Of a stretch of DNA of 64,000 nt, positions 12,190-12,395 are shown piece after piece. Below the pieces are notes generated by a model. That model ran no database searches, had not been told where the DNA came from, and worked only from the letters and a program-made list of their open reading frames with translations. Position 1 is the stretch's first letter, and each line of letters begins with the position of its first letter. The stretch is taken from the sequence record PQ529420, one strand, 5' to 3'. The stretch is from Escherichia phage Eryne. A program made the translations under genes and the position numbers.

Positions 12190-12395
12190 CAAAATTATTT
12201 AAAGTTTTTACAGATTTTTGGGTACAAATTTTGAAAATGAAAAGTTCAAGTTTGGTCAAAATTATTTAAAGTTTTTGTACGTATTTCTGTCCAGATTTTG
12301 AAAATGAAAACTTCAATTTTTTAAAAATTCCCCAGTTTATTTAAAGTTTTTTTGCCTTTTTCCGTAGAAAAATCAAAAATGAAAAGTTCAATTTC
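12190..12395. repeat. three tandem direct repeats of about 70 bp
   Basis: Each unit contains attatttaaagttttt and ttttgaaaatgaaaagttcaa. Confidence 0.6.

Follow-up and report, generated by a model that had tools for sequence, protein, structure and literature searches.

A conserved three-unit direct-repeat array in a non-coding module of Escherichia phage Eryne, a candidate transcription-activated replication origin

We analyzed a stretch of 64,000 nucleotides from Escherichia phage Eryne (sequence record PQ529420; hereafter the window) with a focus on a tandem repeat array located in a 1.48-kb gap without convincing genes. The source is a phi92-like E. coli phage of the genus Justusliebigvirus, subfamily Stephanstirmvirinae, and positions 11000-14500 of the window are 95-98% identical to Escherichia phages arall, Paula, inny, alia and phi92. 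The initial annotation had placed three tandem direct repeats at 12190-12395; they are indeed there, arranged head-to-tail and unique. In database records of phi92-like relatives the repeats bear at most a bare 'repeat_region' feature. The array starts 215 bp beyond the stop of a NADAR-domain gene. Each unit contains two conserved blocks, A (TTATTTAAAGTTTTT) and B (GAAAATGAAAAGTTCAA), and an 11-bp core (ATTTAAAGTTT) that is common to both blocks and is therefore present in two direct copies per unit:

12190-12256: repeat unit 1, with block A at 12195-12209, block B at 12233-12249 and cores starting at 12197 and 12243
12257-12331: repeat unit 2, with block A at 12262-12276, block B at 12300-12316 and cores starting at 12264 and 12310
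12332-12398: repeat unit 3, with block A at 12337-12351, block B at 12375-12391 and cores starting at 12339 and 12385

Alignment of the repeat copies (12174-12252, 12241-12319 and 12316-12394; 72% identity over 79 nt) confirms that they are tandem, with copy starts separated by 67 and then 75 bp. The unit period therefore varies, and the 70 bp initially proposed is merely an average; Tandem Repeats Finder reports copies 1 and 2 only (period 67, score 185). Block A is exact in all three units, block B carries 0, 1 and 1 mismatches, and the distance from block A to block B is a constant 38 bp. The earlier statement that two motifs recur at fixed spacing thus holds for the spacing, while the first five bases of the second motif differ in copy 3. 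A conserved TTCCCCAG precedes unit 3. Neither block has a comparable match elsewhere in the window, and the array motifs have no second occurrence in arall, a close relative with a genome of 145.7 kb. A block match with up to two mismatches is expected by chance 1.67 times per whole window; three exact 15-mers inside 150 bp are far beyond chance. A pattern search allowing up to two mismatches returned four of the six cores, and the remaining two were recognized by direct reading of the sequence. The cores follow one another at intervals of 46, 21, 46, 29 and 46 bp, that is, 46 bp within a pair and 21 or 29 bp between pairs. With two cores in each of three units, the array can be described as six iteron-like direct sites forming three pairs.

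The array has an A+T content of 79%, and the segment 12056-12275 is the second least stable 220-bp duplex segment in the 64 kb. Units 1 and 2 fold no better than shuffled sequences on either strand (z-scores of +0.45 to +0.94), and folding of the units gave a small hairpin in unit 3 only. Rfam searches of the locus at gathering and permissive thresholds returned nothing relevant, and a tRNA search found none. We also considered capture from a host or plasmid; the array has no match in E. coli genomes or plasmids.

The array is embedded in a larger non-coding module, whose features and bordering genes are as follows:

11424-11975: NADAR-domain gene, left border of the 1.48-kb gap
12003-12040: hairpin, stem stronger on the plus strand (-17.3 vs -8.4 kcal/mol), U-run behind it on the minus strand only
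12412-12475: Fur-box-like palindrome array (ATGATAATCATTCTCATTT, AAATGAGAATCATT, AAATGAGAATTTTTCTCATTT), best match 15/19 to GATAATGATAATCATTATC
12563-12536, minus strand: promoter P2, TTGCTT-16-TATTCT, directed leftward toward the Fur-like array and the repeats
12577-12596: invariant 20-mer TCTTTACATTTCTTTACAAA, whose reverse complement GTAAAGAAATGTAAAG reads GTAAA-N5-GTAAA, a perfect CpxR-consensus tandem
12597-12703: G+C-rich element of about 105 nt, about 84% identical even in Klebsiella KB57, Proteus Mydo and Cronobacter CR3
12734-12706, minus strand: promoter P1, TTGACA-17-TATACT, directed leftward
12737-13003, minus strand: small conserved open reading frame (ORF), homologue of phi92 gp224 (88 aa), just upstream of P1
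13456-13728, plus strand: gene forming the right border of the gap

We compared 33 module variants from two phage subfamilies, Stephanstirmvirinae and Vequintavirinae. Both P1 and P2 retain good -35/-10 hexamers at fixed positions in all 33 variants, while their spacer sequences change; by this comparative evidence they are sigma-70-type promoters directed at the array. On the plus strand, no promoter is conserved across the same variants, and one controlled by Fur, which we had considered, was rejected for that reason. Downstream of P1 and P2 there is no ORF of at least 40 aa except one overlapping the promoters, so their output is probably non-coding. The hairpin at 12003-12040, at the left edge of the gap, is retained in phages Tr1, KP2025 and phAPEC8, and because its U-run is on the minus strand only it could end the P1 and P2 transcripts. 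A terminator hairpin at 12489-12523 was also considered, and was dropped on the grounds of the folding results for the units and their neighbors. The gp224 homologue yields a confident all-helical model without a match to a known fold.

The Fur consensus GATAATGATAATCATTATC is a 19-bp dyad (PMC3788343), and the palindromes at 12412 and 12435 each match it at 15 of 19 positions. Matches of at least 14/19 number 34 across the window vs 4.75 in random sequences, and they are clustered at two non-coding islands, this one and a second at 23265-24980; in arall they are confined to the equivalents of the same two islands. The Fur-like boxes number three in the window vs five in most phi92-like phages and one to five in relatives, often 29 bp apart. 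The array of boxes in the window is about 53 nt shorter, which looks, from the sequence, like a deletion between copies of AATGAGAATCATT. The CpxR consensus is a tandem GTAAA-N(4-8)-GTAAA (PMC9603713). The CpxR-type box is centered at about -48 of P2, is invariant in all relatives, and is the sole match with up to two mismatches in arall. A single perfect match to the CpxR box per genome is unremarkable by chance; what singles out this putative site is its conservation. Both Fur and CpxR may be involved at these putative sites.

The identity of the G+C-rich element between the two subfamilies is far above that of coding DNA. This element and a G+C segment beside the Fur-like array fold no better than shuffled sequences, and in consensus folds of the conserved element the covariation term is close to zero for either strand. 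We therefore treat both as DNA-level elements. An interim idea of a Fur-regulated small RNA was dropped on the same grounds.

Between the Fur-like array and P2, the sequence comes in two versions whose distribution does not match taxonomy: one is common to Citrobacter Tr1 and Klebsiella KB57, the other to Salmonella SSE121 and Klebsiella KP2025. Contig L144 joins KB57-type repeats with the version not found in KB57. Such mixing suggests recombination of module parts between subfamilies.

The repeat array itself is under strong constraint. Among nine phi92-like genomes, 6 of 221 array positions are variable, none of them in the blocks, vs 140 of 976 positions in adjoining coding DNA; within the genus the array is about five-fold less variable than the neighboring genes. 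Exactly three units are present in 33 of 33 module variants, with invariant copy number and internal spacing; the layout is alike throughout and the unit sequence is lineage-specific. In more distant relatives (Citrobacter Tr1, Klebsiella KP2025 and FKP3, phAPEC8 and one uncultured contig) the three units and their spacing are unchanged at a sequence likeness of about 70%, with blocks retained and spacers diverged, and the 46-bp distance within core pairs recurs in Tr1 and phAPEC8.

Members of the Vequintavirinae (Klebsiella KB57, Cronobacter CR3, Pectobacterium phiTE, Salmonella SSE121 and metagenomic contigs) also carry exactly three units, of 63-78 bp, at the equivalent position but of other sequence: GG(G)T(T)CTCGATCG ... 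GATCGTATT ... GAAAAAATTTTT. Units of the ATTTAAAGTTT and CTCGATCG types can be aligned with each other over part of block B only. The Vequintavirinae units hold palindromes (CTCGATCGAG) and 4-6 GATC sites per approximately 210 bp vs 7-9 per kb locally, both of which are DNA-level features. The genes flanking the module differ from lineage to lineage; the conserved unit is therefore the non-coding module.

Several further observations concern these relatives. To the left of their three units, Vequintavirinae and phAPEC8 have a spacer with two to three copies of (T)TATCTCAAA and, farther left, a repeat of the GAAATGGTTTTC type with a period of about 12 bp, for which the window has no clear equivalent. 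At the phiTE locus, a search for a sequence like the pseudo-ToxI of phiTE, as an example of a type III antitoxin repeat RNA, gave no match. Four records labeled 'Campylobacter phage' with C. jejuni as host (MG065639, MG065645, MG065656 and MG065689) are 94-98% identical over the locus; they are probably mislabeled or derived from contaminating coliphages.

Taken together, these properties suggest that the units act as duplex DNA, as an array of six direct 11-bp sites, since they lack single-strand structure, bear palindromes and GATC sites in one lineage and present their sites in direct orientation. The initial annotation's suggestion of a multi-site protein-binding array is well supported by the sequence comparisons: there is no single-strand fold, the blocks are kept, copy number and spacing are invariant, and variation is five-fold lower. 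Because the unit sequence changes with lineage and the host-type motifs do not, the units probably bind a lineage-specific, likely phage-encoded, protein. Three units in every relative examined, in a shared layout and with a lineage-specific sequence, is the pattern expected of sites co-evolving with their binding protein.

What would such an array do? The origins of T7 and T4 consist of promoters followed by an AT-rich unwinding region. With promoters feeding an A+T-rich, presumably protein-bound, non-coding array, the best-fitting known class for the Eryne module is the transcription-activated origin, and we tentatively favor the interpretation that the array is the binding and unwinding part of such an origin. 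According to this model, the two host sigma-70 promoters, P2 with its CpxR-type box, would fire leftward, and transcription would cross the Fur-type operators, where iron or Fur occupancy could gate read-through. It would then enter the AT-rich array, where the duplex would open or an R-loop form, aided by the bound protein, and the opened array could let the T7-like primase/helicase and the polymerase start. The phage encodes both a T7-like primase/helicase and a PolA-type polymerase.

A replication origin, one of the functions named in the initial annotation, is thus plausible but unproven: low duplex stability and the two promoters speak for it, and a number of results weigh on the other side. 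We found no match to DnaA boxes (TTWTNCACA) or to integration host factor (IHF) sites (WATCAANNNNTTR) in the gap, and no A-tract phasing indicative of intrinsic curvature at the array. No initiator gene is recognizable beside the array: the neighbors encode a NADAR protein, a T5orf172/CapR endonuclease, an AAA ATPase with weak similarity to helicase loaders and gp224, and no informative family was obtained for the flanking proteins. The core spacing of 46/21/46/29/46 bp is unlike the contiguous iterons of about 22 bp in plasmids or lambda. GC skew in this phage family merely tracks the direction of transcription (also PMC3606486), and the rV5 genome paper, in which the region appears as an unexplained 'non-coding' box, did not locate the origin by skew analysis (PMC3606486). 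A literature search found no experimental origin mapping for any relative, and no publication that deals with an origin or with Fur sites in rV5/phi92-type phages.

The second non-coding island is a competing origin candidate and thus another point against placing the origin at the array. It is the most A+T-rich DNA of the window, with four near-consensus Fur-like boxes (23512, 23570, 24466 and 24661) and a 3 x 16-bp tandem repeat at 23880-23930. Many GenBank records begin or end inside this island, and the record of phage UAB_1 has 343-bp direct terminal repeats annotated within its equivalent. Short terminal repeats were reported for UAB_1 (PMC11350853), and 342-bp terminal repeats were determined for BME3 by PhageTerm (PMC12210895). 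Mapped onto the window, the terminal repeat corresponds to about 24354-24732, which puts two Fur-like boxes into each terminal repeat and the three units about 12 kb from the right end, a distance equal to 8% of the genome length.

The T5orf172/CapR neighbor, at 10230-11423 just upstream of the NADAR gene, is 397 aa long; it combines four CapR-homology repeats with a T5orf172 domain and is homing-endonuclease-like. In SSE121 an HNH endonuclease occupies the equivalent place, so that mobile endonucleases gather beside the conserved module.

The alternative that survives best, although we regard it as rather doubtful, is a regulatory nucleoprotein array without a replication role, in which an architectural protein, from the phage or the host, would occupy the units and control transcription through the locus. 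Such an array could serve as a temporal switch, in silencing, or in termination of the P1 and P2 transcripts and of convergent upstream transcripts. The setting is suitable for this: the module is dense in transcription signals (P1, P2, the CpxR-type box and the Fur-type operators), and the array lies between convergent transcription units, in an early region of small genes, beside a hairpin with a minus-strand U-run. However, there is no protein-coding target downstream of P1 and P2; the nearest plus-strand gene is 1 kb from the array and has promoter-like sites of its own, and the units contain no promoter-like sites.

A second group of explanations comes from comparison with bacteriophage T5. 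A pattern search with the invariant 20-mer also matched T5-like phages. T5 (NC_005859) has an identical TCTTTACgTTTCTTTACAAA box at 5077-5096, in the first-step-transfer (FST) region. As read from the sequence, a pre-early promoter-like site (TTGCGC-17-TATTAT) follows the box closely, 55 nt ahead of the T5.009 ATG. Within the injection stop signal annotated in T5 there are at least six AAATGAGAATCATT(A/C)TCATT palindromes, with up to 16/19 matches to the Fur consensus; they form an array at 9534-9722, behind which come a G+C palindrome and the major nick. This array is at 7.8-8.0% of the T5 genome and the signal as a whole at 7.5-8.3%, vs about 8% from the genome end for the module. Davison's 2020 analysis of T5 considered the function of these regions impossible to guess and does not mention Fur; it describes paired DnaA boxes in inverted repeats in the injection-stop region (10.1101/866236).

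By analogy, the module might be the rV5/phi92 equivalent of the T5 FST repeats, an ancient cis-acting cassette common to unrelated virulent enterobacterial phages that recruits Fur, CpxR and a lineage-specific phage protein; we consider this improbable. Such a cassette would control an early end-proximal step, which could be entry pausing, genome anchoring or protection, or an iron- and envelope-stress-gated start of replication. The narrower proposal, that the array is a counterpart of the injection-stop repeats that pauses, anchors or protects an entering or replicating linear genome, appears slightly less probable still. In this proposal the three units would correspond to the lineage-specific DRD repeats of T5. 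The shared box, the AAATGAGAATCATT palindrome arrays inside the injection stop signal and the distance from the genome end in UAB_1 and BME3 are consistent with it. Against it, the T5-type paired DnaA boxes were not found in the gap, similarity between the module and T5 is limited to short motifs, and the 67-75-bp units have no T5 counterpart. Moreover, two-step injection is not known in this phage family, and the genes at the other end of the genome read inward, as expected of the leading end.

Comparably improbable is a function of the repeats as RNA, in which a minus-strand non-coding transcript of about 500-700 nt would carry three A/U-rich modules that act as a sponge for Hfq, RNase E or another RNA-binding factor, or that recruit it. 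Both conserved promoters do read into the array, the region is non-coding, and a stem followed by a U-run closes the minus strand. On the other hand, the folding results for units 1 and 2 and the lack of an Rfam match argue against an RNA function, as does the absence of covariation in the neighboring conserved element. Unit sequence is also wholly different between subfamilies even though a host RNA-binding protein would be the same, and the palindromes and GATC sites of the Vequintavirinae units are of DNA type.

The two remaining explanations can be largely set aside. A unit of about 70 bp is promoter-sized and the sequence is A/T-rich, so three tandem promoters or functionless neutral duplications come to mind, yet either is very improbable: a search inside each unit found no -35/-10 pair, none is conserved between lineages, and strong purifying selection and an invariant copy number are not what neutral repeats would show. 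A dispersed class of promoters was likewise rejected, the motifs being unique in the genome. Recognition by the packaging machinery (a pac or cos site), which the initial annotation had also offered, was rejected as hardly credible despite the tandem repeats in non-coding DNA and the several GenBank records that start near the locus, because the genome ends with their direct terminal repeats are 12 kb away and the terminase gene is distant (133.6 kb vs 66.1 kb for the locus in arall, about 67 kb apart).

The rV5/phi92/phAPEC8 group consists of common phages of broad host range that are widely used for therapy and biocontrol, and it has no mapped replication origin or early control region. What was an anonymous 'repeat_region' or 'non-coding' box can now be described as a module that combines a six-site array with two promoters and with putative sites for Fur and CpxR, and whose conservation exceeds that of the surrounding genes. 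Should Fur or CpxR really act at this locus, it would mean that virulent phages sense the iron and envelope-stress status of their host. The motifs in common with T5 may also offer a new approach to the function of the T5 injection stop, a question 40 years old.

Among known systems, repeat regions 1 and 3 of the T5 FST DNA resemble the module in being a non-coding block better conserved than its flanking genes, with a GTAAA-N5-GTAAA box, AAATGAGAATCATT palindromes followed by G+C-rich sequence, and lineage-specific direct repeats, about 8% from the end. They differ in that the T5 motifs belong to a terminal repeat of 10 kb and are accompanied by paired DnaA boxes and by nicks. Iteron origins (lambda ori, P1 oriR, pSC101 and R6K) differ in having contiguous repeats of about 22 bp, where the module has paired 11-bp cores with a spacing of 46 bp within a pair and 21-29 bp from pair to pair, and in the adjacent initiator gene and DnaA or IHF sites. 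They resemble it in that a short site is directly repeated several times within AT-rich DNA that is non-coding, in the nearby sites for host factors (putative here) and in the lineage-specific sequence of the sites; several direct sites and an adjacent A+T-rich region are thus found here as well. Compared with the T7 primary origin and T4 oriF and oriG, the module is a candidate origin only. It has host sigma-70 promoters, Fur-like operators between the promoters and the AT-rich part, and, in place of a simple unwinding element, an ordered and conserved array of six sites. Nevertheless, these origins share several properties with the module: they have no DnaA boxes, they are served by the phage's own primase/helicase and polymerase, and they have one or two promoters aimed at an adjacent, easily unwound A+T-rich segment.
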